The position numbers were made by a program, and so were the translations under genes. DNA of 64,000 nt from an uncultured cyanobacterium (GTDB lineage Bacteria > Cyanobacteriota > Cyanobacteriia > Cyanobacteriales > CAWUOF01). A model generated the notes under the pieces. It saw nothing but the letters and a program-made list of their open reading frames with translations. It made no database searches and was not told where the DNA came from. Every line of letters begins with the position of its first letter. Position 1 is the stretch's first letter. Shown here piece after piece: positions 45,903 through 60,641 of this stretch. The stretch lies in contig CAVUSO010000001.1 in the NCBI GenBank assembly GCA_963744145.1, positions 1,536,001-1,600,000 on the forward strand. Direction: 5' to 3'.

Positions 45903-46121
45903 TATCAACATCTTCCAGGAGGAGCAGGTAGAAATCTAATGGGGTGGGATCATCGGAGCGCCATTTTGGCTCGGTTCAAGGTTTTTGCTAGTTATTTTTT
46001 CCCATAACAATAATTTCTTTGAATAAGTGGAGAGCTTTTTTTGCATGAGGTGCTAAAATGATCATATTCACTTTTCCCATGCTCTTTTTAGGGATAGCGA
46101 TCGCGTTGCTCTTAACAAAAA

Positions 46122-46904
46122 ATGTACGATAACATTTGTAAATTTATCGCCGAAAACTTTAGTGATGATCTGGCGAGTTGGTTATTGGGAACTCCCGTAA
46201 AGTTAACCAAACTAAACCCAAGGGAGTTATCTTTAGAACCGATCCGGATGGACTCTCTGATTTTACAACAGTCAGAAGAGTTAGTTTTGCACACAGAATT
46301 TCAAACCGAGCCCGATCCAGCAATTCCCTTTCGGATGCTAGACTATCGTGTCCGAGGATATCGTTGCTTTCCTGACAAGGAAATGCGTCAGATCGTGGTG
46401 TACTTGCGACCCACCAATTCGGAATTAGTGAGACAAACCAGTTTTAGATTAAGTCGGACTCATCACGAGTTTGATGTAATTCGGCTCTGGGAACAACCAA
46501 CGGAGATATTTCTATCTGCACCAGGGTTATTACCATTTGCAGTGTTGAGTCGGACACCAGAACCAGAGTTAGTATTAAATCAGGTAGCGAGGAGCATTGA
46601 CCAAATTACCGATCGCAATGTTCAAAGTAATATCTGTGCATCCACAGCGATTTTAGCTGGATTAAGATTAAATGGAGAAGTAATTACTAGACTATTAAGG
46701 AGAGAGATTATGCGCGAATCAGTCATCTATCAAGAGATTTTGCAGGAAGGGTTACAGGGAGGAGTAGAGCAAGGGATAGAAATCGGCAAACAACAAGCAA
46801 AAGAGGGGATAGCTGTCAATTTGCTCAAAACTGGGATGACGGTGGAGCAAGTGGTTACTTTTACTGGGTTATCGGTAGAACAAGTACAGCATTTACAGCA
46901 GTAG
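46122..46904 (+). CDS. Rpn-family (recombination-promoting nuclease/putative transposase) protein, copy 1
   Basis: MYDNICKF, D..LHTEFQT PD-(D/E)XK-like core, MRESVIYQEI, C-terminal HTH-like tail. Confidence 0.88.
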   Translation: MYDNICKFIAENFSDDLASWLLGTPVKLTKLNPRELSLEPIRMDSLILQQSEELVLHTEFQTEPDPAIPFRMLDYRVRGYRCFPDKEMRQIVVYLRPTNSELVRQTSFRLSRTHHEFDVIRLWEQPTEIFLSAPGLLPFAVLSRTPEPELVLNQVARSIDQITDRNVQSNICASTAILAGLRLNGEVITRLLRREIMRESVIYQEILQEGLQGGVEQGIEIGKQQAKEGIAVNLLKTGMTVEQVVTFTGLSVEQVQHLQQ

Positions 46905-47023
46905 CTGAGTCAGTAAAAGTGATCGCATGAGTGAGACTTAAGCATGACTGTAAAAATTATCCGGGCTGCGATCGGTATTGTAGATGAATCCAGTTAATTT
47001 ACTGAGCGATCGCATCTGAAAAT

Positions 47024-47090
47024 TTAGCCCGGATATCCTTCTTGGAGATATTTTTCATGAGGGAATTAAGCTGAAAATAAGTCGGTTTTC
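47024..47090 (-). pseudogene. 3' remnant of the NB-ARC gene
   Basis: Nearly identical to 48778-48844 (..KPTYFQLN.LMKKYLQEGYPG*). Confidence 0.85.
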
Positions 47091-47189
47091 CATCATGTCT
47101 AAATAGGTGGGATTTTCTTCAATAAAGTAAATTAGCGGTGCTGTATCTAATGCTACAAGTTGTCCTTCTAACTGACTTATCCATTCCAT
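47055..47189 (-). pseudogene. Truncated PIN/VapC toxin
   Basis: MEWISQLEGQLVALDTAPLIYFIEENPTYL then runs out of frame into the NB-ARC remnant and stops at 44 aa. Confidence 0.75.
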
Positions 47190-47392
47190 GAAGCTCGTTC
47201 CTGATTAACATATTCTTGTGCATCAATCCCATTCCAAACTTCCTTACCCAATCCCCGCAATTCTGTAATACTATGTTGTGGCTTAGGCATAACCCTGTGA
47301 CGCACATCTGCTAACAGTTCAGCGATCAGTCGCAGTTGTTCATCCGGTGGGAGGCTGAGAGCTTGATTTAGGATCTCGTTATAATTAGACAT
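47177..47392 (-). CDS. Small antitoxin-like protein upstream of the PIN fragment
   Basis: LSLPPDEQLRLI..SITELRGLGKEVW..YVNQERASW; overlaps the PIN start. Confidence 0.72.
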   Translation of the reverse strand: MSNYNEILNQALSLPPDEQLRLIAELLADVRHRVMPKPQHSITELRGLGKEVWNGIDAQEYVNQERASWNG

Positions 47393-47465
47393 AGGTTCGC
47401 AAACGTGACTTTTTTAGTGATCATTTCTATTCTAGCAATAATTTTACCCTGATCTTATCCAAAAT

Positions 47466-47668
47466 GCGATCGCGTCGGTTGGAGAAGAAGGGGAGAAGGA
47501 TGGAATTGGTGGACAAAAGAATGGAGCAAAGACGATGACTTGATCTTCTCAGTCAATTCCCCTAAAGGTCATCTTCCAGGAGGAGCAGGTAGAAATCTAG
47601 TGGGATGGGATCATCGGAACGCCATTTTGGCTCGGATCAAGGTTTTTGCTAGTTATTTTTTCCCATAA
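47466..47668 (+). pseudogene. 3' fragment of the GUN4-domain gene, starting at a HIP1 site
   Basis: Near-identical to 53551-53753; a shorter copy lies at about 45909-46007. Confidence 0.85.
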
Positions 47669-47782
47669 CAATAATTTCTTTGAATAAGTGGAGAGCTTTT
47701 TTTGCATGAGGTGCTAAAATGATCATATTGGCTTTTCTCATGATCTTTTTAGGGATGGCGATCGCGTTGCTCTTAACAAAAA

Positions 47783-48658
47783 ATGTACGATAACATTTGT
47801 AAATTTATCGCCGAAAACTTTAGTGATGATCTGGCGAGTTGGTTATTGGGAATTCCCGTAAAGTTAACCAAACTAAATCCAATGGAGTTATCTTTAGAAC
47901 CGATCCGGATGGACTCTCTGATTTTACAACAGTCAGAAGAGTTAGTTTTGCACACAGAATTTCAAACCGAGCCAGATCCAGCAATTCCCTTTCGGATGCT
48001 AGATTATCGTGTCCGAGGATATCGTTGCTTTCCTAACAAGGAAATGCGTCAGATCGTGGTGTACTTGCGACCCACCAATTCGGAATTAGTGAGACAAACC
48101 AGTTTTAGATTAAGTCGGACTCATCACGAGTTTGATGTAATTCGGCTCTGGGAACAACCAACAGAGATATTCCTATCTGCACCAGGGTTATTACCGTTTG
48201 CAGTGTTGAGTCGGACACCAGAACCAGAGTTAGTATTAAATCAGGTAGCGAGGAGCATTGACCAAATTACCGATCGCAATGTTCAAAGTAATATCTGTGC
48301 ATCCACAGCGATTTTAGCTGGATTAAGATTAAATGGAGAAGTAATTACCAGACTACTAAGGAGAGAGATTATGCGCGAATCAGTCATCTATCAAGAGATT
48401 TTGCATGAAGGGTTACAGGGAGGAGTAGAGCAAGGGATAGAAATCGGTAAACAACAAGGGATAGAAATCGGCAAACAACAAGGGATAGAAATCGGCAAAC
48501 AACAAGGGATAGAAATCGGCAAACAACAAGGGTTACAACAGTTACAGGAAGCAAAAGAGGGAATAGCTATCAATTTGCTCAAAACTGGGATGACGGTGGA
48601 GCAAGTGGTTACTTTTACTGGGTTATCTGTAGAACAAGTACAGCATTTACAGCAGTAG
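47783..48658 (+). CDS. Rpn-family protein, copy 2 (four GIEIGKQQ repeats)
   Basis: Near-identical to copy 1 except for the 24-bp repeat expansion and a short adjacent insertion. Confidence 0.88.
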   Translation: MYDNICKFIAENFSDDLASWLLGIPVKLTKLNPMELSLEPIRMDSLILQQSEELVLHTEFQTEPDPAIPFRMLDYRVRGYRCFPNKEMRQIVVYLRPTNSELVRQTSFRLSRTHHEFDVIRLWEQPTEIFLSAPGLLPFAVLSRTPEPELVLNQVARSIDQITDRNVQSNICASTAILAGLRLNGEVITRLLRREIMRESVIYQEILHEGLQGGVEQGIEIGKQQGIEIGKQQGIEIGKQQGIEIGKQQGLQQLQEAKEGIAINLLKTGMTVEQVVTFTGLSVEQVQHLQQ

Positions 48659-48777
48659 CTGAGTCAGTAAAAGCGATCGCATAAGTGAGACCTAAGCATG
48701 ACTGTAAAAATTATCCGGGCTGCGATCGATATTGTAGATGAATCCAGTTAATTTATTGAGCGATCGCACCTGAAAAT

Positions 48778-50148
48778 TTAGCCCGGATACCCTTCTTGTA
48801 GATATTTTTTCATGAGGGGATTAAGCTGAAAATAAGTCGGTTTTACTTCAGATTTAGGATCGAGTAATAGCCGTCTTCCCAAAGATTGGATCGCATTTAA
48901 TAAGTCTGAAGTAGCTAACTTGTTTCTGCTGATAATTTGTGGTAATGTTATCGGTGTACTCTCCTGAGCTATATCGATTATAATTTCTTTTTCTGATGGT
49001 GATAATCTGTCAAATTGTCGTTTTAGTTGAACTTGTAAAGATTCACATAAAATTAAACTTTCACATTGGAGAAATTCAGAAACTTTACCTGCAAATAACT
49101 CTTGAATCATTAGAGCAGTAAACTCTAACCAGAGCGGATTTCCTTGGTAGATATTAATTAAAGTTTCCCAGGTTTCTTCATCTAATAAATTATGTTCCCT
49201 CAATATTTCTTTAGCTGCTATACCTAAATTACTTAATACTAAAGAGCGATCGGGACTATTTGATCGCTCTGATTTGGCAAAGTCTCTGATTTTTTCGGAA
49301 CTAATTAACATTAAGCAACTGTGATGAGAAGTTTTTGCTAATCGTCTAAAAAATAGAGGATAATTTTCTAAGGTTGGTTGATATTCTCCAGCAAATTTAC
49401 CGCTCCTAAAAAGCATCTGTACATCATCAAGAATAATCAAGCATCGATAGTTTCGCAGGTAATTGAGGAGTTGGGAAAGTTGCTTTTCAATATTGTGATT
49501 AATTTCTGGAGTTTCACAGAAGTTTTGGAGCAAGTTACTGAGGGTTGTTTCTAGGGTTGGAGAAAAACAAAGACTATAATAAATAATATAATCAAAATTA
49601 GTTTTTATTTGTTCAATTAAACGGAGACTCAGCGCGGTTTTACCAATTCCGCTCATTCCCAAAAGCTCGATCAGACGACAGCGATCGCTGATGATCCAAT
49701 GTTCTAGAGTAGCGAGTTCCGTGGTGCGATCGTAAAAGCTGAATATTTCTGGTGCATCACCTAAATTAATTTGGGGTTGTTTAGGGGTTTGTTGGGGATG
49801 TTGAGGAGATTTTGGCGATCGGGTCTTTTCTGAACAAATGTTAACATTATTAATTCCTCCAAAATTTTCACCAATAGATGAAATATGGTAAGTATTACCA
49901 TTTTCTACTATTGATCTAAAACTTGCTTTACTAACATCTTTTCCTAATCCATCCGATAGGATTTTCCACAATTGCGAACCGATATCCCTGACATAACTTT
50001 CGCTAGAATGGGTCATTTCAGCAATCTTTAGATAAGTCTCATCATGTAGAGTTCCTTGCAAAATAGCCTCTTGCAAATAGTCTAAGTGCTTACCTGTCTT
50101 AGTATAAACTAGCTCATCTGCCAATTTTAAGATTTCCTTAACATCCAT
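48778..50148 (-). CDS. HTH + NB-ARC (STAND) ATPase without C-terminal repeat domain, copy B
   Basis: N-terminal LQEAIL..TYLKIAE..SESYVRDIGSQLWKILS HTH-like segment; FYDRTTEL, Walker A GMSGIGKT, Walker B LIILDDV, GNPLWL. Confidence 0.88.
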   Translation of the reverse strand: MDVKEILKLADELVYTKTGKHLDYLQEAILQGTLHDETYLKIAEMTHSSESYVRDIGSQLWKILSDGLGKDVSKASFRSIVENGNTYHISSIGENFGGINNVNICSEKTRSPKSPQHPQQTPKQPQINLGDAPEIFSFYDRTTELATLEHWIISDRCRLIELLGMSGIGKTALSLRLIEQIKTNFDYIIYYSLCFSPTLETTLSNLLQNFCETPEINHNIEKQLSQLLNYLRNYRCLIILDDVQMLFRSGKFAGEYQPTLENYPLFFRRLAKTSHHSCLMLISSEKIRDFAKSERSNSPDRSLVLSNLGIAAKEILREHNLLDEETWETLINIYQGNPLWLEFTALMIQELFAGKVSEFLQCESLILCESLQVQLKRQFDRLSPSEKEIIIDIAQESTPITLPQIISRNKLATSDLLNAIQSLGRRLLLDPKSEVKPTYFQLNPLMKKYLQEGYPG

Positions 50149-50190
50149 AGGTCAACGATGGGATAAGCTTTCTGGCGTATTATATACGAT

Positions 50191-50265
50191 TTTTCCAACA
50201 TTTCCGACACTATTCTGACATTTCCAACTTGGTCACCCCAAAAAATACCCGATTTTTCCAACTTG
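50191..50265. promoter_or_regulatory. Short direct-repeat array in the divergent promoter (candidate operator)
   Basis: TTCCAACA, TTCCGACA, TTCTGACA, TTCCAACT at 9-11 bp spacing, plus TTCCAACT near 50256. Confidence 0.5.
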
Positions 50266-50335
50266 ATCTCTAAAATTACCAATACTAAACTTGAGTAGTT
50301 GATAAATGCTAAGTAAATCAAAATAAGAATGTGAT

Positions 50336-50560
50336 ATGGGATACAAGTCAGATCACGATTTTAGAACAGGTTTGTTCAAGCAAGTGACAAAAGGTATGGA
50401 AGATGACCAACCTCAAGAATTCCATCAATTTTTGCATGATTACTATTCAGAGCAGAAAGATAGTATGACTTACCAAGAACTTCTGAAAGCTGCAAAAGAG
50501 TTTATGGAAAATTATCCAGAATATACATGGAATGGTGATAGATGGGTTTTTCAAGAATAA
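50336..50560 (+). CDS. Small helical hypothetical protein (74 aa)
   Basis: ORF with FHQFLH..MTYQELLKAAKEF; first gene of the divergent run. Confidence 0.6.
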   Translation: MGYKSDHDFRTGLFKQVTKGMEDDQPQEFHQFLHDYYSEQKDSMTYQELLKAAKEFMENYPEYTWNGDRWVFQE

Positions 50561-50661
50561 GCATCTTGTTTGAATAAAATAGGTTGGCTTAACAAATTAG
50601 AGCAGCATATAATAGTCCACTAATTTTTTTGATAGTAACAATAGGAGATTAGAAGTAAACA

Positions 50662-50904
50662 ATGGCTAAACAAGCGGAAGCACTAATATCGAAATTTGGT
50701 GGCGATTACACTTATGAGGAGTTGCGCCTGATCAAAAAAGATTTTGAACTTTCTAAAATTCAATATGAATATCCAGGTAGTGTAAAAGGTAATAATTTTA
50801 CAGAACTAGAGGAACTGGCTAAAGATGGTGATCCAGATGCAAAAAAAGCAATTAAGCTTCTTCTCCAAACCAATAGACTAAATGAAAAATCAGGTCAAGA
50901 TTGA
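50662..50904 (+). CDS. Small hypothetical protein (80 aa)
   Basis: AGGAG upstream; EYPG..ELEELAKDGDPDAKKAIKLL. Confidence 0.68.
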   Translation: MAKQAEALISKFGGDYTYEELRLIKKDFELSKIQYEYPGSVKGNNFTELEELAKDGDPDAKKAIKLLLQTNRLNEKSGQD

Positions 50905-51017
50905 ATAGCCCGAGTAGATTATAGATAGTTTAGATGTTGTCTAAAATTTATTCTTGCTATTTAGAGTTTAGTTCATACTGAGTGGAGTTTCATTCTACAA
51001 GAATCAAGAGACTAATT

Positions 51018-51200
51018 ATGGCTAAAAAACACATGGGTCAAGTTAAAACGCCAACAGGTTCTGCTTACGATTATTATTGGGATGAAAATACTGGTGAAGT
51101 CTATGTTGGTAGCGAATCGGCTGGTAAAGCTTCATCCTCTGATGAAGCTTGGCGTAAAGCTAACTACTACGCAACTACGCTTAAACAATGGAAGGATTGA
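51018..51200 (+). CDS. Conserved 60-aa hypothetical protein, copy B
   Basis: 50/60 aa identical to 57057-57239 by manual comparison. Confidence 0.75.
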   Translation: MAKKHMGQVKTPTGSAYDYYWDENTGEVYVGSESAGKASSSDEAWRKANYYATTLKQWKD

Positions 51201-51206
51201 TTAAGA

Positions 51207-51431
51207 AAATTGTGATCGCTTCCTTCATAAGCTCTACTGTCTGGTGATATAAAAAATCAAGAAACGTTGAGTTTTTGTTGGGCGATCGCACTTGCTTTCC
51301 CAAAATCTCTACTAAATCTGACTGACAACGAACAATAATTCAAATCAAAATTGTGAATTGATCGCTCCATCAAATCTGATATCTAGTGATTGAAAAAATC
51401 AAAAGAGGTTGAGTTTTTGCTGGGCGATCGC
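51207..51431 (+). repeat. Two copies of a ~72-bp repeat ending in HIP1
   Basis: GATCGCT..GTGAT..AAAAAATCAA..GTTGAGTTTTTG.TGGGCGATCGC at about 51214-51289 and 51360-51431. Confidence 0.8.
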
Positions 51432-51481
51432 TTCACTAAATCAACAAGTTCTAACAAATTTTAATCCAAACGGAGTTAATT

Positions 51482-52306
51482 ATGAGTAGTATACTCGAAA
51501 ATATAAAAGAATGTTTAGATGACTCTAACAAATACAGAGAACGGGGAGACTTCTATTCTGAGCAAAAAAAATATAAGCAAGCTCTTGAAGAATATGCTAG
51601 GTCTCTGGAAAGATTTGAAATATATCTGCGGCTTACCGAAACAACTGCGGGAAAAACATATTATGAAGGAAACATTTGGCCTAATGTACTTTTTTCGATG
51701 GCTAGGATATTTATGAAGATTAAAACTTGCTATTTTGAGCAGGAAGATTATGCTAAAGCTGCATTTTTTATCAAAATCTTAAAAGAAATTGCCAAAAATT
51801 TAGATGGATTTAAAACTAGTTTTAATATAGAAATGTTAAACTCTTACGAAACATTAATTGAAGGATTAAAATATAGTGAAGCTTTAGTTAGTGTAAAAAA
51901 AGATATAAGTGATTTAAAGAATCAATCTAACAAAGTAGATGATTCTGATGAAATTTTTAAGAAAATTTGTTTAGAATTAGATAGATGTTGTTCTTATCAT
52001 ATATGTCCTTTACCTGCTAGAGGAATTGATAAGAAAGCTCCTTATGGTAGTAGTAGTAATTCTTGCTTCATCGCAACAGCAGCCTTCTCAACTTCTGTAC
52101 ATCCAGACTTAGACACATTCCGTAGTTTTCGAGATGAAAAACTTTTAACCAATTTGATTGGTAAGCAGCTAGTTAATCTCTACTATAAAATCGGACCCAC
52201 TATAGCTCAATATGTGGAAAAACAGCCAGGAATCAAAACTTTTCTAAAACAGCAACTAGGGCATTTAGCAAAGTGGATGCGTAGCCGAGGAGTTACAAGT
52301 AGGTAA
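51482..52306 (+). CDS. Helical/TPR-like protein with C-terminal CFI-box-CTERM domain, copy B
   Basis: SCFIATAAF..FRSFRDEKL..GKQLVNLYYKIGPTIA; GGAG RBS. Confidence 0.8.
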   Translation: MSSILENIKECLDDSNKYRERGDFYSEQKKYKQALEEYARSLERFEIYLRLTETTAGKTYYEGNIWPNVLFSMARIFMKIKTCYFEQEDYAKAAFFIKILKEIAKNLDGFKTSFNIEMLNSYETLIEGLKYSEALVSVKKDISDLKNQSNKVDDSDEIFKKICLELDRCCSYHICPLPARGIDKKAPYGSSSNSCFIATAAFSTSVHPDLDTFRSFRDEKLLTNLIGKQLVNLYYKIGPTIAQYVEKQPGIKTFLKQQLGHLAKWMRSRGVTSR

Positions 52307-52376
52307 TATAAATTTTTGCGATCGCCTATTTTTCAGACATGGTAATCAAAATAATTTAACTGAGGATGTAGCTAAT

Positions 52377-52560
52377 ATGGAAATTTTGGAAAATCGCCAA
52401 GAAATATGGTATGAAAAAGGTAAGGAGTTACGTTAGCAAGGTGAGTTTATAGGTGCGATCGCTGCATTCGATCAAGCTATAGCGATTAAAAACGACTTCC
52501 ATCAAGCTTGGTTTTTCAAGGGTATTGTGCTGAATTATTTAGAACGCTATGAGGATGCAA
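52377..52560 (+). pseudogene. Decayed 5' part of the TPR gene
   Basis: Matches 58467-58650; GAG>TAG at 52434-52436; homology ends near 52560. Confidence 0.88.
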
Positions 52561-52674
52561 CACACAAAGAGAGGCTTTCAAGAATCATCCTCAACCACCA
52601 CAATCAACTCAGTAGTGAAACATCAATCTGTCTATCAGTTTATAGGTAATTTCAACATATTGGAGATGTAAATA

Positions 52675-53753: not shown

Positions 53754-53866
53754 CAATAATTTCTTTTAATAAGTGGAGAGCTTTTTTGCATGAGGTGCTA
53801 AAATGATCATATTGGCTTTTCTCATGATCTTTTTCAGAATGGCGATCGCGTTGCTCTTAACAAAAA

Positions 53867-54718
53867 ATGTACGATAACATTTGTAAATTTATCGCCGAAA
53901 ACTTTAGTGATGATCTGGCGAGTTGGTTATTGGGAACTCCCGTAAAGTTAACCAAACTAAACCCAAGGGAGTTATCTTTAGAACCGATCCGGATGGACTC
54001 TCTGATTTTACAACAGTCAGAAGAGTTAGTTTTGCACACAGAATTTCAAACCGAGCCAGATCCAACAATTCCCTTTCGGATGCTAGATTATCGTGTCCGA
54101 GGATATCGTTGCTTTCCTGACAAGGAAATGCGTCAGATCGTGGTGTACTTGCGACCCACCAATTCGGAATTAGTGAGACAAACCAGTTTTAGATTAAGTC
54201 GGACTCATCACGAGTTTGATGTAATTCGGCTCTGGGAACAACCAACAGAGATATTTCTATCTGCACCAGGGTTATTACCGTTTGCAGTGTTGAGTCGGAC
54301 ACCAGAACCAGAGTTAGTATTAAATCAGGTAGCGAGGAGCATTGACCAAATTACCGATCGCAATGTTCAAAGTAATATCTGTGCATCCACAGCGATTTTA
54401 GCTGGATTAAGATTAAATGGAGAAGTAATTACTAGACTATTAAGGAGAGAGATTATGCGTGAATCAGTCATCTATCAAGAGATTTTGCATGAAGGGTTAC
54501 AGGGAGGAGTAGAGCAAGGGATAGAAATCGGCAAACAACAAGGGATAGAAATCGGCAAACAACAAGGGATAGAAATCGGCAAACAACAAGGGTTACAACA
54601 GTTACAGGAAGCAAAAGAGGGAATAGCTATCAATTTGCTCAAAACTGGGATGACGGTGGAGCAAGTGGTTACTTTTACTGGGTTATCTGTAGAACAAGTA
54701 CAGCATTTACAGCAGTAG
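53867..54718 (+). CDS. Rpn-family protein, copy 3 (three GIEIGKQQ repeats)
   Basis: Near-identical to copies 1 and 2. Confidence 0.88.
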   Translation: MYDNICKFIAENFSDDLASWLLGTPVKLTKLNPRELSLEPIRMDSLILQQSEELVLHTEFQTEPDPTIPFRMLDYRVRGYRCFPDKEMRQIVVYLRPTNSELVRQTSFRLSRTHHEFDVIRLWEQPTEIFLSAPGLLPFAVLSRTPEPELVLNQVARSIDQITDRNVQSNICASTAILAGLRLNGEVITRLLRREIMRESVIYQEILHEGLQGGVEQGIEIGKQQGIEIGKQQGIEIGKQQGLQQLQEAKEGIAINLLKTGMTVEQVVTFTGLSVEQVQHLQQ

Positions 54719-54838
54719 CTGAGTCAGTAAAAGCGATCGCATGAGTGAGACCTAAGCATGACTGTTAAAAATTATCCGGGCTGCGATCGATATTGTAGAT
54801 GAATCCAGTTAATTTATTAAGCGATCGCATCTAAAAAC

Positions 54839-56209
54839 TTAGCCCGGATATCCTTCTTGTAGATATTTTTTCATAAGATAATTAAGCTGAAAATAAGTCT
54901 GTTTTCCTTCAGATTTAGAATCTAGTAATAGCCGTCTTCCCAAAGATTGGATCGCATTTAATAAGTCTGAAGTAGCTAACTTGTTGCTGTTGATAATTTG
55001 TGATAATGTTATCGGTGCATCCTCCTGAGCCAGATCAATTATAATTTCTTTTTCTGAGGGTGCTAGTCGCTCATATTGTCCTTTTAGTTGCACTTGCAAA
55101 GATTCGCATAAAATCAAACTTTCACATTGGAGAAATTCAGAAACTTTACCTGCAAATAACTCTTGAATCATTAGAGCAGTAAACTCTAACCAGAGCGGAT
55201 TTCCTTGGTAAGTATTAATTAAAGTTTCCCAGGTTTCTTCATCTAATAAATTATGTTCTCTCAATATTTCTTTAGCTGCTATACCTAAATTACTTAATAC
55301 TAAAGAGCGATCGGGACTATTTGATCGCTCTGATTTGGCAAAGTCTCTGATTTTTTCGGAACTAATTAACATTAAGCAACTGTGATGAGAAGTTTTTGCT
55401 AATCGTCTAAAAAATAGAGGATAATTTTCTAAGGTTGGTTGATATTCTCCAGCAAATTTACCGCTCCTAAAAAGCATCTGTACATCATCAAGAATAATCA
55501 AGCATCGATAGTTTCGCAGGTAATTAAGGAGTTGGGAAAGTTGCTTTTCAATATTGTGATTAATTTCTGGAGTTTCACAGAAGTTTTGGAGCAAGTTACT
55601 GAGGGTTGTTTCTAGGGTTGGAGAAAAACAAAGACTGTAGTAAATAACATAATCAAAGTTAGTTTTTATTTGTTCAATTAAACGGAGAGTTAGTGCAGTT
55701 TTACCAATTCCGCTCATTCCCAAAAGCTCGATCAGACGACAGCGATCGCTGATAATCCAATGTTCTAGAGTAGCGAGTTCCGTGGTGCGATCGTAAAAGC
55801 TGAATATTTCTGGTGCATCACCTAAGTTAATTTGGGGTTGTTTAGGGGTTTGTTGGGGAGGTTGAGGAGATTTTGGCGATCGGGATTTTTCTTGACAAAA
55901 ATTGACGTTATTAACTGTTCCATAATTTTGACCAATAGCTGATGAATAACTAAACCTTGCTCTTTCTAGGATCGCTCTAACATTACCTTTACTAACCTCT
56001 TCGTCTAATACCTCTGAAAGTATTTTCCATAATTCAGAAGCAGCAACTCTAACATAACCCTCAGTACAATCACGGTCTTGGGCTATCTTGGCATATTTCC
56101 GACCTTGGAGAGCTTCTTTTAAAATAGCCTCTTGCAGATCATCTAAGTGTTGTCCAGTTTTGGCAAAAACTCTTTCATCGGCGAATCTTAAAACTTCCTT
56201 AAGCTCCAT
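54839..56209 (-). CDS. HTH + NB-ARC (STAND) ATPase, copy C
   Basis: Same motifs as copy B; about 110 N-terminal aa diverged, remainder nearly identical. Confidence 0.88.
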   Translation of the reverse strand: MELKEVLRFADERVFAKTGQHLDDLQEAILKEALQGRKYAKIAQDRDCTEGYVRVAASELWKILSEVLDEEVSKGNVRAILERARFSYSSAIGQNYGTVNNVNFCQEKSRSPKSPQPPQQTPKQPQINLGDAPEIFSFYDRTTELATLEHWIISDRCRLIELLGMSGIGKTALTLRLIEQIKTNFDYVIYYSLCFSPTLETTLSNLLQNFCETPEINHNIEKQLSQLLNYLRNYRCLIILDDVQMLFRSGKFAGEYQPTLENYPLFFRRLAKTSHHSCLMLISSEKIRDFAKSERSNSPDRSLVLSNLGIAAKEILREHNLLDEETWETLINTYQGNPLWLEFTALMIQELFAGKVSEFLQCESLILCESLQVQLKGQYERLAPSEKEIIIDLAQEDAPITLSQIINSNKLATSDLLNAIQSLGRRLLLDSKSEGKQTYFQLNYLMKKYLQEGYPG

Positions 56210-56250
56210 AAGTCATGCTTTGGATAATTTTTACTAATATTACCAAAGTT

Positions 56251-56291
56251 TTTATAACATTTTACATAACATTATGTAACTTTTTCTAACA
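56251..56291. promoter_or_regulatory. Short direct-repeat array in the divergent promoter (candidate operator)
   Basis: TAAC at 56255, 56267, 56277 and 56287 in T-rich units. Confidence 0.5.
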
Positions 56292-56357
56292 GGCTCAAAC
56301 AACTAATCGTCCAAAGCAGCCATTGTATGATATTTGAGTAACTTCGGAGAAGCAAAA

Positions 56358-56624
56358 ATGCCTAGCCCAAGTGGTTGGAAATCTATCGGTAAAATTGATG
56401 GAGTTGATTGGGAAATCAAAGAAAAAAAGCACGGTCGATTTTTTCTTATGCGGTCTGTTGGAACTCAATATGACCCTAACGATCCTGATTATCCTCACAC
56501 TCTAGTTGAACTTGAAAATGGCCAATTAACTGGCTTTCAGCACAATTCAGATGATAGACACGGGATGAAGTTCGGAACACGGGATGTAATTATGGCGGCA
56601 GCAAGGATTGTTTTGAGCATTTAG
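56358..56624 (+). CDS. Small hypothetical protein (88 aa)
   Basis: GGAG RBS before ATG 56358; YPHT..FQHNSDDRH. Confidence 0.65.
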   Translation: MPSPSGWKSIGKIDGVDWEIKEKKHGRFFLMRSVGTQYDPNDPDYPHTLVELENGQLTGFQHNSDDRHGMKFGTRDVIMAAARIVLSI

Positions 56625-56726
56625 AGTCGTTGCATGATACTTGATTAAGATTTGCTGTTCGACTTTGCAGTGTTATAGCCGCTCTTGTTGTATATAATCT
56701 ACTTAGGTAAATGAGGCAAATATTCA

Positions 56727-56954
56727 ATGTCTAATAAACCATTTAAGGACGAAAGAAAACAAAATCGTGAATCAGCACAAAAGGATGTTGATAATGTCGT
56801 GAAAGAATTACATTTAACACCAGATGAAAGAGATAAATTACATGATGAATTAGGTGAAGATTATCTCGGATACCATGAAATTCTTGATAGAGCTAAATCT
56901 CTGTTTTCTAAACGTCATGTTAATTATAAAAATGGAGAAAAAGATCGCTGGTAG
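56727..56954 (+). CDS. Small helical hypothetical protein (75 aa)
   Basis: GAGG upstream; VVKELHLTPDERDKLHDEL..LGYHEILDRAKSLF. Confidence 0.68.
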   Translation: MSNKPFKDERKQNRESAQKDVDNVVKELHLTPDERDKLHDELGEDYLGYHEILDRAKSLFSKRHVNYKNGEKDRW

Positions 56955-57056
56955 TCAATGGTTATGCTGTAAAAATAAAGGGTTTATCAAACCGGCTAGT
57001 TAGAGTTTAGGTAATACAGAATTCAGTTGAATTTTATAAACATCAATGGAGTAGTT

Positions 57057-57239
57057 ATGGCTAGAAAAGCAATGGGTGAAGTTAAAACGCCAACAGGTTC
57101 AGTTTATACTTATTATTGGGACGAAGATACTGGTGAAGTCTATGTTGGTGGTGAATCGGCTGGTAAAGCCTCATCTGCTGATGAAGCTTTGCATAAAGCT
57201 AACTACTACGCAACTACGCTTAAACAATGGAAGGATTGA
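57057..57239 (+). CDS. Conserved 60-aa hypothetical protein, copy C
   Basis: GGAG RBS; paralog of 51018-51200. Confidence 0.75.
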   Translation: MARKAMGEVKTPTGSVYTYYWDEDTGEVYVGGESAGKASSADEALHKANYYATTLKQWKD

Positions 57240-57245
57240 TTAAGA

Positions 57246-57470
57246 AAATTGTGATTGATCGCTCTATCAAATCTGATATCTAGTGATTGAAAAAATCAAA
57301 AGAGGTTGAATTTTTGCTGGGCGATCGCACTTGCTTTCCCAAAATCCCTACTAAATCTGACTGACAACGAACAATAATTCAAATCAAAATTGTGAATTGA
57401 TCGCTCCATAAAATCTGATATCTAGTGATTGAAAAAATCAAAAGAGGTTGAGTTTTTGCTGGGCGATCGC
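57246..57470 (+). repeat. Two copies of the ~72-bp repeat ending in HIP1
   Basis: Copies at about 57257-57328 and 57399-57470. Confidence 0.82.
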
Positions 57471-57520
57471 TTTACTAAATCAACAAGTTCTAAGAAATTT
57501 TAATCCAAACGGAGTTAATT

Positions 57521-58396
57521 ATGGATGTTGCTACAGAAATACAACAATTATTGAACGCAAGTATCGGATGCAGAAACAGTGGAGACGTTTATTATGAGCA
57601 AAAAAAATATAAGCAATCTCTTGAAGAATATGCTAGAGCTCTGGAAAAATTTCAAGAATATCTAAACCTTTTTGGTGCTTTTGAAGAATCTGAGCGTCGA
57701 ATGTGTGGACATAGGACTGATTTCGATGTAGAAACCATAGGTAATGTAAAAATTAAAATTAATGTTCTTTTTCCAATGGCTGTTATATTTATTTCGATTG
57801 AAAATTGCTATATTCAACTGCGAGATTATGCTAAAGGTACGTTTTGTCTTAAAATTTTAAGACAAATTATCCAGGGGTTGGATAGAGTTAAAAATAGCCT
57901 ACATCCAGAGATATTAAAAGCCTACATAGAATATACTGAAATGTTAGATTCTTATGACCGATGTTTAAATTCAATGAAAATACTAACACTAACAGACAAA
58001 AGTGATTCTGATAATCAATCTAACGAAATTGACGATTCTGATGAGACTTTTAAAAAAATTTGTTTAGAATTAGACAAATGCTGTTCGTATCGTATATGTC
58101 CTTTGCCTGCTAGAGGAATTGATAAGAAAGCTCCTTATGATGGTAGTAATTCTTGCTTCATTGCAACAGCAGCTTACTCAACTTCTACACATCCAGACTT
58201 AGACACTTTCCGCAGTTTCCGAGATGAAAAACTTTTAACTAATTCTGTTGGTAAGCAGGTAGTTAATATCTACTATAAAATCGGTCCTACAATCGCTCAA
58301 TATGTGGACAAACAGCCAGAAATTAAAACTTTTCTAAAACAGCAACTAGGGTATTTAGCAAAGTGGATGCGTAGTCGAGGAGTTACAAGTAGGTAA
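57521..58396 (+). CDS. Helical/TPR-like protein with C-terminal CFI-box-CTERM domain, copy C
   Basis: SCFIATAAY..FRSFRDEKL; shares EQKKYKQ.LEEYAR and the C-terminal third with copy B. Confidence 0.8.
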   Translation: MDVATEIQQLLNASIGCRNSGDVYYEQKKYKQSLEEYARALEKFQEYLNLFGAFEESERRMCGHRTDFDVETIGNVKIKINVLFPMAVIFISIENCYIQLRDYAKGTFCLKILRQIIQGLDRVKNSLHPEILKAYIEYTEMLDSYDRCLNSMKILTLTDKSDSDNQSNEIDDSDETFKKICLELDKCCSYRICPLPARGIDKKAPYDGSNSCFIATAAYSTSTHPDLDTFRSFRDEKLLTNSVGKQVVNIYYKIGPTIAQYVDKQPEIKTFLKQQLGYLAKWMRSRGVTSR

Positions 58397-58466
58397 TATA
58401 AATTTTGGCGATCGCCTATTTTTCAGACATGATAATCAAAATAATTTAACTTAGGATGGAGCCAAT

Positions 58467-59840
58467 ATGGAAAATTTGGAAAATAGCGAAGAAGTATGGT
58501 ATGAAAAAGGTAAGGAGTTACGTGAGCAAGGTGAGTTTATAGGTGCGATCGCTGCATTCGATCAAGCTATAGCGATTAAAAACGACTTCCATCAGGCTTG
58601 GTTTTTCAAGGGTGTTGTGCTGTATGATTTAGAACGCTATGAGGATGCAATTGCCGTATTCGATCAAGCTATAGCAATTAAAAACGACTTCGATAAGGCT
58701 TGGTTTTTCAAGGGTGTTGTGCTGAATGCTTTAGAACGCTATGAGGATGCAATTGCCGTATTCGATCACCTTATAGCAATTGAATATAACTTCTGCGATC
58801 TAGCTTGGAATAATAAGGGGCTTGCACTATGTGAATTAAAACGCTATATGGACGCAATCATAGCATTTGACCAAGCTATAGCAATTAAAAATAACTATCA
58901 TGAAGCTTGGGATTCCAAGGGTTATGCACTGTCTAAGTTAGAACGTTATGAAGATGCGATCGCTGCATTTAATCAAGCTATAGCGATTAAACACGATTTC
59001 TTCGTAGCTTGGTGGCACAAGGGTGTTGTACTGTATGATTTAGAACGCTATGAGGATGCGATCGCTGCATTCGATCAAGCTATAGCGATTGATAATGATC
59101 AATCTGCTTGGTCTCTCAAAGGTCATGCACTGACGAGTTTAGGAAATGAGCTGTGGAAATTAGAACGACATAAGGACGCGATAATTGCATTGGATCAAGC
59201 TATAGCCATTAACCATGATAACGGACTAGCTTGGTGCTACAAGGGCTGTGTTTTGAATAACTTAAAACGGTATGAAGATGCGATCATTGCATTTGACCAA
59301 GCTATAGCGATTGACCATAATTGCCACGGTGCTTGGTTATTCAAGGGCGCTACACTGAATAACTTAGAACGCTATGAGGATGCGATCACCGCATTTGATC
59401 AAGCTATAGCGATTAAACCTGACTTACATCAAGCTTGGTTTGACAAGGGTTTTACACTAAATGAATTAGAACGGTATAACGATGCGATCATAGCATTAGA
59501 CCAAGGTATAGCAATTAAATACGACGACGAAAACGCTTGGTTTAATAAAGGTTTTGCGCTGTATAACTTAAACCAGCATGAAGATGCGATCGTTGCACTA
59601 GACCAAGCTATAAAGATTAATCACAATAATGAAAGCGCTTGTTTTTATAAGGGTCGTGCACTGAGTGATTTAGGACGCGATGAGGATGCGATTATGGCAT
59701 TTGACCAGGCTATATCAATTAAGCACGACTGCCAACAAGCTTGGTTTCAGAAGAGTAAATCGTTGCGTAAATTAAAACGCGATGAGGATGCCAATGCAGC
59801 CCTTAGCAAGTTCTTTAATTTTGTTGTGGAGAAATCATAA
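58467..59840 (+). CDS. Tetratricopeptide-repeat protein (about 13 repeats)
   Basis: Repeated AW..KG..L..LERYEDAIAAFDQAIAI. Confidence 0.95.
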   Translation: MENLENSEEVWYEKGKELREQGEFIGAIAAFDQAIAIKNDFHQAWFFKGVVLYDLERYEDAIAVFDQAIAIKNDFDKAWFFKGVVLNALERYEDAIAVFDHLIAIEYNFCDLAWNNKGLALCELKRYMDAIIAFDQAIAIKNNYHEAWDSKGYALSKLERYEDAIAAFNQAIAIKHDFFVAWWHKGVVLYDLERYEDAIAAFDQAIAIDNDQSAWSLKGHALTSLGNELWKLERHKDAIIALDQAIAINHDNGLAWCYKGCVLNNLKRYEDAIIAFDQAIAIDHNCHGAWLFKGATLNNLERYEDAITAFDQAIAIKPDLHQAWFDKGFTLNELERYNDAIIALDQGIAIKYDDENAWFNKGFALYNLNQHEDAIVALDQAIKINHNNESACFYKGRALSDLGRDEDAIMAFDQAISIKHDCQQAWFQKSKSLRKLKRDEDANAALSKFFNFVVEKS

Positions 59841-59966
59841 CTTCTAAATATGAATCTTATCCAAAATACGATCACTTCTCTTAGGATAGCTTCTTACAGA
59901 TTGTGTAAGTTCTTACAGATTGTCTAAGTGTTTCTCAGTTTGTATTCTGAAATGGAGGTTAAGCAA

Positions 59967-60413
59967 ATGGGATCTTGGAGTGATTGGCATAAATGTGAAT
60001 TTGATAGTGATGGAAATATAGATATGGGACCACTAAATGATGCACCTAATTGGCCTGGTCTTTATGCAATTGCTATGAAAGATCCAGATTACGGTGATTT
60101 TGTTGTTAATTATATTGGAATGTCAAAAAAAAGTATTTGGAAAAGGCTTGATACCCATTTTTCAGGAAGAGGTAGCAAAGTTATAGCAAGAAGATTAAAA
60201 GCTAAGAAAGATAAAGATACAACAATGTCTCGAGTGGATGCCCTTTATTTCATGTTTTTAGAGACTTCAGAATATGATGCTCCTTGGATGGAAGCTCTTT
60301 ACATAAGAGGAACAAAACCGATTGCAAATGTGCAACAGGAATTGAAGCTACCAACAGCACTAGAAAGAGCTTTACGGAATTCAGATGTTAATTTTGAACC
60401 AGAAGATGATTAA
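59967..60413 (+). CDS. Stand-alone GIY-YIG nuclease-like protein
   Basis: PGLYAI..NYIGMS, RLDTH, EALYI..PIAN; GGAGG RBS before ATG 59967. Confidence 0.75.
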   Translation: MGSWSDWHKCEFDSDGNIDMGPLNDAPNWPGLYAIAMKDPDYGDFVVNYIGMSKKSIWKRLDTHFSGRGSKVIARRLKAKKDKDTTMSRVDALYFMFLETSEYDAPWMEALYIRGTKPIANVQQELKLPTALERALRNSDVNFEPEDD

Positions 60414-60555
60414 GACCTAACTATGCGATCGATCCACTAACTTATGATAGAAAAAATAAAGAAAGGTTGGGGTTTTGCTGGGCGATCTTCTTTAAGCTGC
60501 TGGGTAATTTACTTGGTTAAGCTAATGGAGAAGAAGGATAGTAGCTTTAGGAAAG

Positions 60556-60641
60556 TTTCCTAAAACAGCAACTAGGGCATTTAGCAAAGTGGATGCGTAG
60601 TCGAGGAATTACAAGTAGGTAATCTAGATTTTTGCGATCGC
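60556..60641 (+). pseudogene. 3' remnant of a third CFI-box-CTERM gene
   Basis: Matches about 52241-52326 (FLKQQLGHLAKWMRSRG.TSR*) up to the following HIP1. Confidence 0.85.

Follow-up and report, generated by a model that had tools for sequence, protein, structure and literature searches.

STAND proteins include the transcription activators MalT, AfsR/SARP-NB-ARC-TPR and GutR. Avs proteins are single polypeptides that unite an effector, an NTPase and a TPR sensor, and their action is post-translational. Integron arrays are made up of small promoter-less genes in series, and their content varies between strains. In the accessible part of a catalogue of domain architectures, an r4_2-NB-ARC(-TPR_MalT) arrangement is recorded from cyanobacteria (PMC11119718). 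The accessible portions of the work of Kaur et al. on NTP-dependent conflict systems take an ECF-like HTH as a sign of a transcriptional response, describe the coupling of parts through EADs, Death-like/TRADD-N domains or vWA-MoxR proteins (PMC7159879, PMC8195603), and treat GUN4 as a domain confined to cyanobacterial conflict systems (PMC7159879).

The locus described here shares with MalT, AfsR and GutR the fusion of an NB-ARC/STAND NTPase to a DNA-binding domain, putative direct-repeat sites in the target promoter and an adjacent target operon. It differs in that the protein has its sigma-r4-like HTH at the N-terminus and lacks a fused sensor repeat domain, the predicted target is a set of variable tiny genes rather than a metabolic pathway, and HTH, operator and cargo appear to be swapped as a block. 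Going by the accessible catalogue text, the r4_2*NB-ARC*TPR_MalT proteins ('SigR' class, PMC11119718) likewise join an N-terminal r4_2-type HTH to NB-ARC in cyanobacteria, but the proteins here end after the winged-helix region, without TPR_MalT. Common to this locus and the systems of Kaur et al., as far as the accessible text of PMC7159879 and PMC8195603 extends, are a STAND core, effector genes that vary rapidly, components of GUN4 and TPR type and a skew towards filamentous cyanobacteria. No EAD, Death-like/TRADD-N or vWA-MoxR coupling part was found here (TRADD_N matched one of 11 members, E 0.028), and the coupling appears instead to be transcriptional; the locus type may already figure in the supplementary neighbourhood tables of those papers. 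An NLR-like ATPase and a variable genomic context are shared with Avs and bacterial NLR-like defence, although no Avs or NLR model in PADLOC was matched (only PDC-S27, E 1.5e-4).

Architecture of the array

The array occupies positions 45909-60642 of the analysed window, a 64-kb stretch from a filamentous cyanobacterium, and contains two full units of ~6.08 kb and two collapsed ones. Unit B (47466-53550; blastn self-comparison, per-100-nt identity) and unit C (53551-60642, with a fourth-unit remnant at its 3′ end; repeat families, blastn) have Rpn start codons at 47783 and 53867, the 6084-nt spacing given in the first-pass annotation. The gene order proposed there also holds: Rpn (+), HTH-NB-ARC (−), two small ORFs, a 60-aa ORF, a repeat pair, a CFI-box gene and a TPR gene. 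In blastn self-comparison, 47466-50154 aligned with 53551-56215 at 92.6% over 2694 columns, and 50956-52560 with 56995-58650 at 81.7% over 1663 columns. The promoter and cargo blocks between them (50155-50955 and 56216-56994) had no similarity by blastn, as expected from the earlier claim of unrelated cargo slots.

Unit A (45909-47095; repeat families D3-D6, D11 and D18; tblastn) is 89.9% identical to 47570-48850 and 91.2% to 53655-54911. What remains of it is a GUN4 3′ tail (45909-46004), the Rpn A gene (46122-46904, +) and the final ~145 nt of an HTH-NB-ARC gene (46951-47095, −). This collapsed unit had been recognised from its Rpn at 46122, but a further remnant had been overlooked. At 60415-60642 (+), a fifth copy of the repeat, now degenerate (60415-60489), and the last 91 nt of the CFI gene in a third copy (60552-60642) mark a collapsed fourth unit (families D10 and D12; blastn 92-93%; tblastn 23 aa), which extends over 59928-60642 if the GIY-YIG gene is counted in. 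The unit boundary falls within the GUN4 3′ end, and tails recur at 47468-47665 and 45909-46004 (tblastn). The locus is probably a tandem array, decayed in part, in which an accessory module of filamentous cyanobacteria is present in at least four copies. Units A and B are separated by a unique spacer with a 71-aa antitoxin-like orphan ORF (47177-47392, −; weak Unstab_antitox match, E 0.05), present as a single genomic copy by tblastn and with homologs near three related loci (L034, L037 and L038).

Rpn B (47783-48658, +; 291 aa, TIGR01784 100.7 bits) and Rpn C (53867-54718, +; 283 aa, 100.4 bits) carry four and three GIEIGKQQ repeats, respectively; the three Rpn ORFs (starts 46122, 47783 and 53867) scored 100-108 bits against a cut-off of 52. 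The unit C Rpn, used as a query, found no match in any related locus. Rpn is therefore a local passenger, and its inclusion as a module member was dropped.

Regulator, operator-like arrays and block exchange

The regulators of unit B (48778-50148, −; NB-ARC E 3.8e-10) and unit C (54839-56209, −) are each 456 aa long, with a class-2 and a class-1 HTH head, respectively, and their NODs are 95% identical. Both scored 40-41 bits against NB-ARC PF00931 (cut-off 23.5), and an alignment of 16 regulator sequences shows little or no variation in Walker A, Walker B and GNPLWL. A search for a C-terminal sensor repeat domain found none. The N-terminus resembles a sigma-70-region-4/LuxR-like HTH, a sub-threshold assignment: the unit C HTH matched Sigma70_r4_2 with E 0.0076 (16.3 versus 25.7 bits), and the unit B HTH had no match in the same profile search. 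The family is very large, occurring in 264 of 400 other genomes at E ≤ 1e-60, and most members, including four paralogs in this genome, have other neighbours, which indicates a general regulator class rather than a dedicated defence gene. Cargo at close regulator homologs includes an IetA-like AAA ATPase (PADLOC E 1.3e-36) and dynamin-like GTPase, radical-SAM, ParB-like and Zn-ribbon/DnaJ-type zinc-finger proteins.

A new observation is the covariation between HTH type and the direct-repeat arrays of the divergent promoter; units B and C hold different pairs. The unit B promoter contains a class-2 operator-like array of TTYCYRAC direct repeats (50193-50228, +), the sole one in the 64-kb window (0.00 expected), with one other in the genome. 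In unit C, a class-1 array of four NTAACW repeats, 10-12 nt apart (56255-56290, +), is the sole one in the window (0.21 expected) and the only non-coding one in the genome. Among 59 N-termini compared, from loci that are related by descent and are not independent samples, all 11 loci with a DCxEGYVRVAA-type HTH had 3-5 NTAACW repeats 30-110 nt upstream of the start codon, and the remaining 48 had 0-1. NTAACW positions fell near +44, +56, +66 and +76 in five of the six loci listed. Two to four TTYCYRAC repeats were present in 19 of the 59 loci, whose HTH heads are 53-100% identical to that of unit B and mostly of SEGH[IV]R type; the 11 class-1 loci all fall outside this set. This covariation lends comparative support to the earlier description of the module as STAND-regulated, and is the basis on which the regulator is predicted to bind DNA and activate transcription.

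Divergence between units B and C is mosaic. The first-pass annotation had described scaffold DNA as nearly identical, which is accurate for Rpn and the NB-ARC core (94-100% per 100 nt) but not for the HTH-coding NB-ARC N-terminus (49865-50154; 61-73%) or the CFI N-terminal half (51487-51930; 43-69%). The lowest dS values were those of Rpn (0.04), the NOD (0.11), the 60-aa gene (0.19) and the CFI box (0.26); dS reached 0.66 in the CFI N-terminal half (dN/dS 0.68), the second hypervariable segment, and 0.94 in the HTH. In a quick NOD tree, B and C were sisters (support 100), and the operator class required at least three changes across well-supported branches. The mosaic divergence, together with the conflict between the NOD tree and the HTH/operator class, indicates block exchange. 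Cassette exchange had been proposed for the micro-ORFs; the swapped block is larger and takes in the promoter as well as the 5′ part of the regulator gene that encodes the HTH.

Cargo, conserved genes and recurrence

The cargo ORFs of unit B are B74 (50336-50560, +; 74 aa), with a homolog of 62% aa identity in the same slot of L038, and B80 (50662-50904, +; 80 aa), with homologs in L029, L038 and L123 at 80-86%. Those of unit C are C96 (56334-56624, +), a member of the 'YPH' small-protein family (HMM of four homologs from other loci, E 2.5e-7) with 96 aa from TTG or 88 aa from the first ATG (56358), and C75 (56727-56954, +; 75 aa), with homologs in L031, L069 and L112. Only B80 (dN/dS 0.13-0.16) and C75 (0.16-0.19) were measurable. 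These ORFs had been called unit-specific. They are indeed unrelated between B and C, but all four, and also the GIY-YIG protein, have same-slot homologs in other genera, which supports the view that cargo ORFs are draws from a shared pool of small-gene families.

The 60-aa gene, C60 (51018-51200 and 57057-57239, both +; alignment), is highly conserved, with 104 clusters in the protein database, and its AF2 model (pLDDT 89.7) has four strands and a helix. Neither C60 nor the CFI protein gave an informative fold match. C60 is followed in each unit by two repeats of ~85 nt, 141-142 nt apart (51206-51289 and 51347-51431 in unit B; 57245-57328 and 57386-57470 in unit C, from repeat families and blastn; all +), which occur nowhere else in the genome; those of unit B are hairpin-forming, with fold z-scores of −2.65 and −4.48.

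The CFI-box-CTERM proteins of unit B (51482-52306, +; 274 aa) and unit C (57521-58396, +; 291 aa) scored 74 and 77.4 bits against NF041770 (cut-off 40); alignment and AF2 models reveal a variable, fast-evolving, TPR-like N-terminal half and a conserved C-terminal box. The TPR gene assigned to both units is intact only in unit C (58467-59840, +; 457 aa, 102-nt repeat units, TPR_1 E 2.3e-71, families D1 and D2). In unit B, a 5′-end remnant with an in-frame TAG (52378-52560, +) is 90-97% identical to 58467-58650. Several array parts are decayed, and the locus could be dispensable in this genome. GUN4 does close unit B, but as a tandem two-domain gene (52675-53753, +; PF05419 E 2.5e-49 and 7.7e-15; domain score 167 bits; families D15 and D17) split into ORFs of 249 and 110 aa by an assembly frameshift near 53394-53424; one contig of a DNA run has an extra G after 53394 that joins the frames. 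The GIY-YIG gene said to close unit C (59928-60413, +; 161 aa from GTG) was matched below the Pfam cut-off (PF01541 E 0.0019, 18.9 versus 22.6 bits), and is a probable GIY-YIG protein: a homolog in the L112 cargo slot is 49% identical, with the G-Y, YIG, R, E and N columns invariant.

C60 was found in 22 of 400 other genomes of the order. At 18 of 20 fetched C60 loci a divergent HTH(-NB-ARC) gene adjoins, full-length in 16 (one in two pieces) and an HTH-only short form in two; downstream, 10 of the 20 have a CFI-box protein and four a GUN4 protein instead. A divergent HTH(-NB-ARC) gene also lay within ~3 kb at 17 of 38 further CFI-box loci. These loci were gathered via C60, the regulator or the CFI box, so the fractions are conditional and are not population frequencies. 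The co-occurrence of C60, divergent HTH-NB-ARC and CFI-box genes in other genera identifies a module rather than a chance neighbourhood, as the first-pass annotation had anticipated.

Competing explanations and proposed mechanism

The best reading, judged probable, is that a sensor-less STAND transcription factor drives a private, recombining cargo operon. Repeats of ~6 kb are a classic cause of misassembly, and in the fragmentary contigs of the only DNA metagenome run, possibly the source sample itself, the unit junctions are unbridged. The same contigs, however, match unit-specific segments of B and C at ≥97%. With 7-18% overall divergence between the copies, and with different genes in each, an artefact is very unlikely, close to negligible, and the duplication is regarded as genuine. 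It is improbable, too, that the STAND protein is a protein-level executor whose HTH acts as an effector on invader or host DNA beside unrelated neighbours: HTH domains do number among conflict-system effector modules in the accessible text of PMC7159879, but here there is specific covariation of the HTH type with arrays of repeats whose positions in the regulator's own divergent promoter are fixed, and the genome has few if any other such arrays. A cassette array of integron-like or Rpn-driven kind, with the ~85-nt hairpins as recombination sites and Rpn as recombinase, is a doubtful proposition. As in integrons, small promoter-less genes stand in series with variable content, and structured repeats exclusive to the locus lie at small-gene 3′ ends (C60, twice per unit; GIY-YIG). 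The sequence GCGATCGC forms the end of the repeat boundaries, an Rpn gene is present in each unit, and a related block lies 3′ of C60 or a neighbouring small gene in five other loci. Yet all related loci lack Rpn, no integrase family (IntI included) was found among 20 ORFs scanned, and the repeats share no cross-genus consensus structure (four predicted pairs, −0.81 kcal/mol). The B-versus-C breakpoints coincide with the regulator start codon and a point ~60 nt upstream of C60, away from the repeats.

Two further readings concern function. A true anti-phage or abortive-infection system, in which STAND would sense infection and the small proteins then induced (GIY-YIG, ParB-like, Zn-ribbon, C60) would halt the cell or target invader DNA, would be a stronger functional claim built on the best reading, and is entertained tentatively. 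It would accommodate the resemblance of a STAND NTPase with hypervariable neighbours to the conflict systems in the accessible text of PMC7159879 and PMC8195603, the restriction of the module, among named matches, to filamentous cyanobacteria, the IetA-like cargo of close regulator homologs, the recurring GIY-YIG and ParB-like cargo, and the dN/dS of the CFI N-terminal half. The flanks also hold TA genes, Uma2 and Rpn, and Rpn proteins are reported as antiphage TA systems in the accessible part of bioRxiv 10.1101/2023.05.02.539157. TA and Uma2 genes are, however, abundant genome-wide (57 tblastn matches for the first Uma2 protein), which makes their presence in the flanks weak evidence, and the nuclease assignments are sub-threshold. 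Consistent with the statement that no named system was recognised, PADLOC matched no known system; its only strong match in the 64-kb window, PD-T4-6, stems solely from the GUN4 domain. A PHROG search of all small ORFs and a search for viral or plasmid relatives of C60 gave no phage or plasmid link. Slightly less credence is given to the view that a regulator-operon pair of physiological function (stress, development, cell surface) underwent ordinary segmental duplication, its variable small ORFs being fast-turnover accessory genes with no conflict role. The regulator family is widespread, with paralogs that control unrelated neighbours, many array parts are decayed, and GUN4 and TPR are abundant in the genome (63 and 138 tblastn matches). 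Against this stand a patchy spread together with the high conservation of C60, the repeated exchange of HTH, operator and cargo as a block, and a cargo pool rich in nucleic-acid-related small domains.

In the favoured model of a STAND-driven cargo operon, the module comprises a 456-aa STAND ATPase divergent from a private operon of variable small genes from a shared pool, C60 and a terminal protein, which has a GUN4 domain or else is a CFI-box protein whose TPR-like N-terminal half evolves fast. The ATPase would act as a signal-gated transcription factor, its HTH binding 3-5 direct repeats that lie 40-100 nt upstream of the regulator's start codon at intervals of roughly one helical turn, and nucleotide-dependent oligomerisation would switch on the cargo operon in the manner of MalT/AfsR. 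The lack of a fused sensor domain makes it probable that the trigger is sensed in trans, by the TPR-like/CFI, GUN4 or 60-aa protein. Recombination would move a single block made up of the 5′ end that encodes the HTH, the operator/promoter and the first cargo genes, such that the ATPase cores of B and C remain 95% identical yet their HTH/operator pairs differ and their cargo is unrelated; the array itself would be the product of unequal homologous recombination between Rpn-containing repeats. The module most likely serves in conflict or stress response, through induced small effectors such as GIY-YIG and ParB-like proteins; defence is a plausible role.

Structure of the array and mosaic divergence of its units

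ORF listing, repeat search and a blastn self-comparison of the window delimit two full units of the tandem gene array, unit B at 47466-53550 and unit C starting at 53551, whose Rpn genes begin at 47783 and 53867, a spacing of 6084 nt. In the self-comparison, 47466-50154 and 53551-56215 match at 92.6%, and 50956-52560 and 56995-58650 at 81.7%. A collapsed copy, unit A (45909-47095), retains the Rpn gene and the final ~145 nt of the regulator gene. The two full units, their spacing and the collapsed third were correctly described in the first-pass annotation, which overlooked the 3′ remnant of a fourth unit: a degenerate ~85-nt repeat copy lies 3′ of the GIY-YIG-like gene at 60415-60489, and a third copy of the terminal 91 nt of the gene for the CFI-box-CTERM (CFI) protein lies at 60552-60642. 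Because the unit boundaries sit within a GUN4 3′ end, copies of which occur at 45909-46004 and 47468-47665, the ancestral unit ran from Rpn to GUN4. An assembly artefact, named earlier as a possible source of the duplication, is very unlikely as the origin of the array, since the copies are too diverged. As a whole, the earlier observation is partly confirmed.

Units B and C were compared segment by segment, by per-100-nt identity and by synonymous divergence. Rpn (dS 0.04) and the ATPase core of the regulator (NOD; dS 0.11, 95% amino acid identity) are jointly the best conserved, at 94–100% per 100 nt. The conserved 60-aa gene, C60, has a dS of 0.19 (79–92% identity), and the CFI box a dS of 0.26 (87–97%, including the 5′ end of the TPR gene). 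The N-terminal half of the CFI protein is a second hypervariable segment, with a dS of 0.66, 43–69% identity and a dN/dS of 0.68. The HTH head of the regulator reaches a dS of 0.94, with 61–73% nucleotide and 51% amino acid identity, and the promoter and two small ORFs (50155-50955 vs 56216-56994) are unrelated and could not be aligned. The scaffold had been called nearly identical; this holds for Rpn and the ATPase core and fails for the HTH head and the N-terminal half of the CFI protein, while the cargo slots are indeed unrelated. As divergence differs this sharply between segments, the block that was swapped takes in the 5′ end of the regulator gene with its HTH code, the promoter as well as the first cargo genes, exchanged jointly, and the earlier claim of exchange between units stands in this form.

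The regulator and its putative operator arrays

The regulators, 456-aa HTH-NB-ARC (STAND) proteins divergent from the cargo operons, score 39.9 and 40.6 bits against NB-ARC (PF00931; cut-off 23.5). Their Walker A, Walker B and GNPLWL motifs are intact, and GxxGxGKT, LIILDD and GNPLWL vary little or not at all across 16 regulator sequences. The regulator alignment stops after a conserved ~100-aa region C-terminal to GNPLWL, and no sensor repeats (TPR, WD40 or LRR) were found in the 456-aa proteins with Pfam at E ≤ 0.01. A weak Sigma70_r4_2 match covers residues 25–56 of the unit C regulator (E 0.0076; 16.3 bits against a cut-off of 25.7), with none in unit B; the available part of a survey of cyanobacterial sigma-like proteins catalogues the architecture r4_2-NB-ARC(-TPR_MalT) (PMC11119718). 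The regulator family is very large: at E ≤ 1e-60, members were found in 264 of the 400 other genomes. Four paralogs of the same length in the window's genome face unrelated divergent neighbours. On C1, a contig of the window's genome, the paralog at C1:5672993 faces two divergent ORFs (C1:5669376-5672776), one of 345 aa and one of 700 aa; the latter has a P-loop and looks helicase-like by eye.

Alignment of the 200 nt upstream of regulator start codons, for 59 N-termini, revealed two HTH types, each with its own direct-repeat array at fixed positions. Class 1, defined by a DCxEGYVRVAA-type HTH and including unit C, carries three to five NTAACW repeats 30–110 nt upstream in 11/11 loci, near +44, +56, +66 and +76 in five of the six loci with positions listed; the other 48 N-termini have zero or one such repeat. 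Class 2 comprises 19 loci, including unit B, with two to four TTYCYRAC repeats near +42, +51, +60 and +85/94, and does not overlap with the 11 loci of class 1. The class-2 HTH heads, mostly of SEGH[IV]R type, are 53–100% identical to that of unit B. In a further related locus, L034, TTYCYRAC repeats are visible by eye, and it was missed by the count of 19 because its start is set too far upstream.

Each array occurs once in the 64-kb window, inside the divergent promoter of its own unit (0.21 occurrences expected for class 1 and 0.00 for class 2). Elsewhere in the genome, class-1 arrays of four lie solely within coding repeats, and a class-2 array of three is found at a single further position, C1:6926186-6926210 (TTCCGACATTTCCGACATTTCCGAC), which may be a second target or reflect cross-talk. 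A 499-aa secreted-looking ORF follows ~340 nt downstream of this position, and a regulator paralog (C1:6931363) whose HTH is 71% identical to that of unit B is ~5 kb away. Scans with promoter and terminator consensus sequences returned sites no more numerous than in shuffles.

A quick tree of the NOD domain pairs unit B with unit C as sisters at a support of 100, and operator class still requires at least three changes across well-supported branches. Both the covariation and its conflict with the NOD tree are expected if the HTH binds the repeats and HTH and operator move together. The operator–HTH covariation, seen at the level of sequence, is new evidence on this type of locus and supports a putative DNA-binding role for the N-terminal HTH.

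Recurrence of the module, its cargo and its passengers

C60 has two copies in the array and none elsewhere in the window's genome. Among 400 other genomes of the order, 22 gave a match, and in a large protein database C60 forms 104 clusters, the named members of which are all from filamentous cyanobacteria and carry no Pfam family. Directly upstream of C60, 16 of 20 fetched loci have a full-length divergent HTH-NB-ARC gene (one in two pieces); the others have an HTH-only short form (2/20), a very distant relative only (1/20) or a contig edge (1/20). Downstream, a CFI-box protein is found in 10/20 and a GUN4-domain protein in its place in 4/20. The CFI-box domain itself occurs in 44/400 other genomes, at 53 places, and 17 of 38 further CFI-box loci fetched have a divergent HTH(-NB-ARC) gene within ~3 kb; all these co-occurrence counts hold only given the way in which the loci were gathered, and they come from related genomes. 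The proposal that these genes form a module is borne out in other genomes.

The cargo ORFs had been regarded as unit-specific, and they are not orphans, since homologs occur in the same slot elsewhere. Homologs of the unit B ORF B80 occupy it in L029, L038 and L123, and a homolog of its neighbour B74 does so in L038. The unit C ORF C75 has homologs in L031, L069 and L112, and an HMM places C96 in a small 'YPH' family (E 2.5e-7). For B80 and C75, dN/dS is 0.13–0.19, which indicates purifying selection. Clustering of the divergent flanks of 57 regulator loci adds to this pool small proteins of the ParB-like, zinc-ribbon, DnaJ-type zinc-finger and GNAT-like kinds. In L030, 340–3834 nt past the C60 start, a 111-aa GIY-YIG-like ORF is accompanied by J-domain-like and Hsp70-like proteins, as judged by eye from N-terminal sequences.

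Neither C60 nor the CFI protein has an informative fold match. For C60, a Foldseek search against the PDB gave none at E ≤ 0.001, and the wide VIA search a best Z of only 4.8. A predicted complex of C60 with the HTH-NB-ARC protein scored 0.01 and is uninformative on binding. In viral contigs, 33 pattern matches to C60 yielded 0 confirmed cases, and no match was found in plasmids. The CFI proteins match CFI-box-CTERM (NF041770) at 74.0 and 77.4 bits (cut-off 40) through a C-terminal domain of ~69 aa starting CFIATAA, in which C212, F213, I214, T216 and A217 show little or no variation among 11 aligned sequences. Fold searches with the CFI protein returned just generic TPR rows (E ≥ 0.046), and the ESM Atlas only unnamed clusters for the box; a TRADD-N match in one of the 11 members (E 0.028) was dismissed as chance. 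The literature searched contains no mention of the CFI box or CFIATAA.

Of the families originally listed, Rpn, NB-ARC, CFI-box-CTERM, TPR and GUN4 were recovered, the unit B TPR 'gene' being only a remnant with an in-frame stop and GIY-YIG falling below threshold. GUN4 (PF05419) scores 167.5 bits (two stretches) and 55.7 bits, above the gathering score. In unit B it is one tandem two-domain gene, split by a frameshift (53394-53424) into ORFs at 52675-53424 and 53421-53753. In one contig (depth ~3) from X1, a DNA sequencing run with thin or absent cover over parts of the locus such as 53510-54043, a further G follows 53394 and 53397 reads C instead of T; the two differences together restore a continuous GUN4 motif, FPCEDLRTIDKLWVKYSNGHFGFSVQ. 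The frameshift is thus an error of the assembly or else a polymorphism between strains. The GIY-YIG-like protein and its homolog in L112, placed between a C75-like gene and the CFI gene, score 18.9 and 19.6 bits for PF01541 (gathering score 22.6), and the window protein has no match among PDB sequences. In a two-sequence alignment with a 49%-identical homolog, G44, Y46, Y62-I63-G64, R73, E112/E122 and N134 are invariant; the conserved Tyr, Arg, Glu and Asn positions may correspond to catalytic residues of GIY-YIG nucleases.

Rpn (TIGR01784) is recognised over its full length at 107.6, 100.7 and 100.4 bits (cut-off 52.1). It had been assigned to the module, and this was not borne out: the unit C Rpn query has no match in any related locus, and for this reason Rpn is regarded as a local passenger. 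Of the whole repeat, the stretch that holds Rpn was homogenised last, and the gene probably takes part there solely as repeated DNA. The three copies (46122-46904, 47783-48658 and 53867-54718) differ chiefly in a 24-nt repeat coding for GIEIGKQQ, with one, four and three copies respectively, in the C-terminal part. The variable C-terminal domain of E. coli Rpn is reported, in the part of the literature available, to be translated separately as an antitoxin. Outside the window, C1:902684-908376 holds five tandem, more distant Rpn paralogs (42–46% identity to the window copies), and a short Rpn fragment lies at C1:903816-903968.

The ~85-nt repeats are confined to this locus in the genome, and a genome-wide MITE was accordingly dismissed. 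A repeat-like conserved block (…GCGATCGCTCTCTCGAATCTACTATGCGGTAGTGG.AAGGATGGGAGAGG…GCGATCG) lies 3′ of C60 or an adjoining small gene in five other loci (L028:8229-8322, L029:8099-8192, L036:8199-8292, L037:2824-2917 and L069:550-643). Single repeats fold better than shuffles (z −2.4 to −4.5), and nine copies from six loci across genera gave no conserved RNA structure, with four pairs predicted at −0.81 kcal/mol. Rfam returned nothing relevant over 45.0–61.5 kb. An integron, in which such repeats would mark mobile cassettes, finds no support: 20 ORFs of 46.1–62.8 kb contain no integrase family (IntI-type tyrosine recombinase; Pfam, E ≤ 0.01), the repeats share no attC-like structure, and they do not follow every cassette. 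Several different small ORFs share one ending, AAGGATTGATT.

Candidate conflict role and proposed mechanism

A PADLOC search, suggested in the first-pass annotation, matched no named system. The PADLOC profile PD-T4-6 was matched only at positions 304–433 of 450, its GUN4-like part, short of full length, and PHROGs gave no match for any small ORF. Toxin–antitoxin and Uma2 genes in the flanks are weak evidence for a conflict role, since both kinds are common throughout the genome. Two genes of the Uma2 family, putative restriction endonucleases, lie directly downstream of the array at 60972-61940 (−) and 62084-62785 (−), the second matching PADLOC candidate PDC-S03 (E 7.6e-15), and the family has 11–57 tblastn matches in the window's genome. 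A 71-aa antitoxin-like ORF with no adjoining toxin partner (47177-47392, −) occupies the unique spacer between units A and B and has one to three homologous copies near L034, L037 and L038. In indirect support of a conflict role, Rpn proteins are reported as antiphage toxin–antitoxin genes in the available part of one preprint (bioRxiv 10.1101/2023.05.02.539157).

The candidate conflict role has indirect support of other kinds as well. The available parts of two studies predict STAND-centred, rapidly varying systems in multicellular bacteria, with GUN4 as a cyanobacteria-specific component, and take an ECF-like HTH in them to indicate a transcriptional response (PMC7159879, PMC8195603); the layout of the present locus resembles the systems described there. 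Unlike the ternary/EAD-coupled conflict systems of Kaur et al., it has no recognisable EAD, Death-like/TRADD-N or vWA-MoxR parts in Pfam at E ≤ 0.01, which may lack some EAD models. The genes opposite close homologs of the regulator code for an IetA-like ATPase (PADLOC E 1.3e-36), a GTPase of dynamin-like type and a radical-SAM protein. In L063 (3026-3973) and L066, regulator homologs 57% identical to those of the window stand opposite the IetA-like AAA ATPase, followed by a ~118-aa membrane protein, an arrangement that connects the regulator subfamily with one part of a defence system already known. A RiPP or bacteriocin cluster was dismissed, as the units have no modifying enzymes or exporters. 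Of the earlier interpretation, module and exchange hold, Rpn falls outside the module, and defence is a candidate role. The combined literature search returned the architecture survey (PMC11119718) only, in the text available; supplementary tables of PMC7159879, PMC8195603 and PMC11119718 may list such neighbourhoods.

The locus, with its established anatomy, conservation, covariation and mosaicism, is classified here as a STAND regulator or conflict locus of transcriptional, block-exchangeable design. It is proposed that the STAND protein would act as a signal-gated transcription factor, oligomerising on the repeat array and activating the divergent cargo operon. For the sensor it lacks, the fast-evolving TPR-like/CFI or GUN4 proteins would substitute in trans, or else C60. 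The array may have arisen by unequal homologous recombination, and diversification would proceed by recombination of the HTH–operator–cargo block. An extension of this scheme, possible and still rather unlikely, would make the locus an NLR-like immune module that multicellular cyanobacteria wire through transcription, in which a sensor-less STAND ATPase, triggered by separately encoded, fast-evolving TPR-like/CFI or GUN4 sensors, switches on a private cassette of miniature effectors. HTH head, operator and cassette would be exchanged together between genomes, with C60 as the universal core component, making a 'plug-and-play' immune locus; under this immune-module reading, joint exchange would render the tandem copies mutually insulated circuits with different payloads.

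If the proposed model holds, the locus would represent a family of NLR-like switches that act by transcribing an exchangeable small-gene operon of their own. The STAND-based conflict systems predicted in multicellular bacteria would thereby gain a transcriptional branch, and C60, the CFI-box-CTERM domain and several micro-protein families would receive a first genomic context. Two sequence-defined HTH/operator pairs on near-identical ATPase cores within one locus offer a direct, testable example of a joint swap of specificity and payload. Should the locus be only a stress regulon, it would still be a clean case of mosaic evolution following tandem duplication.
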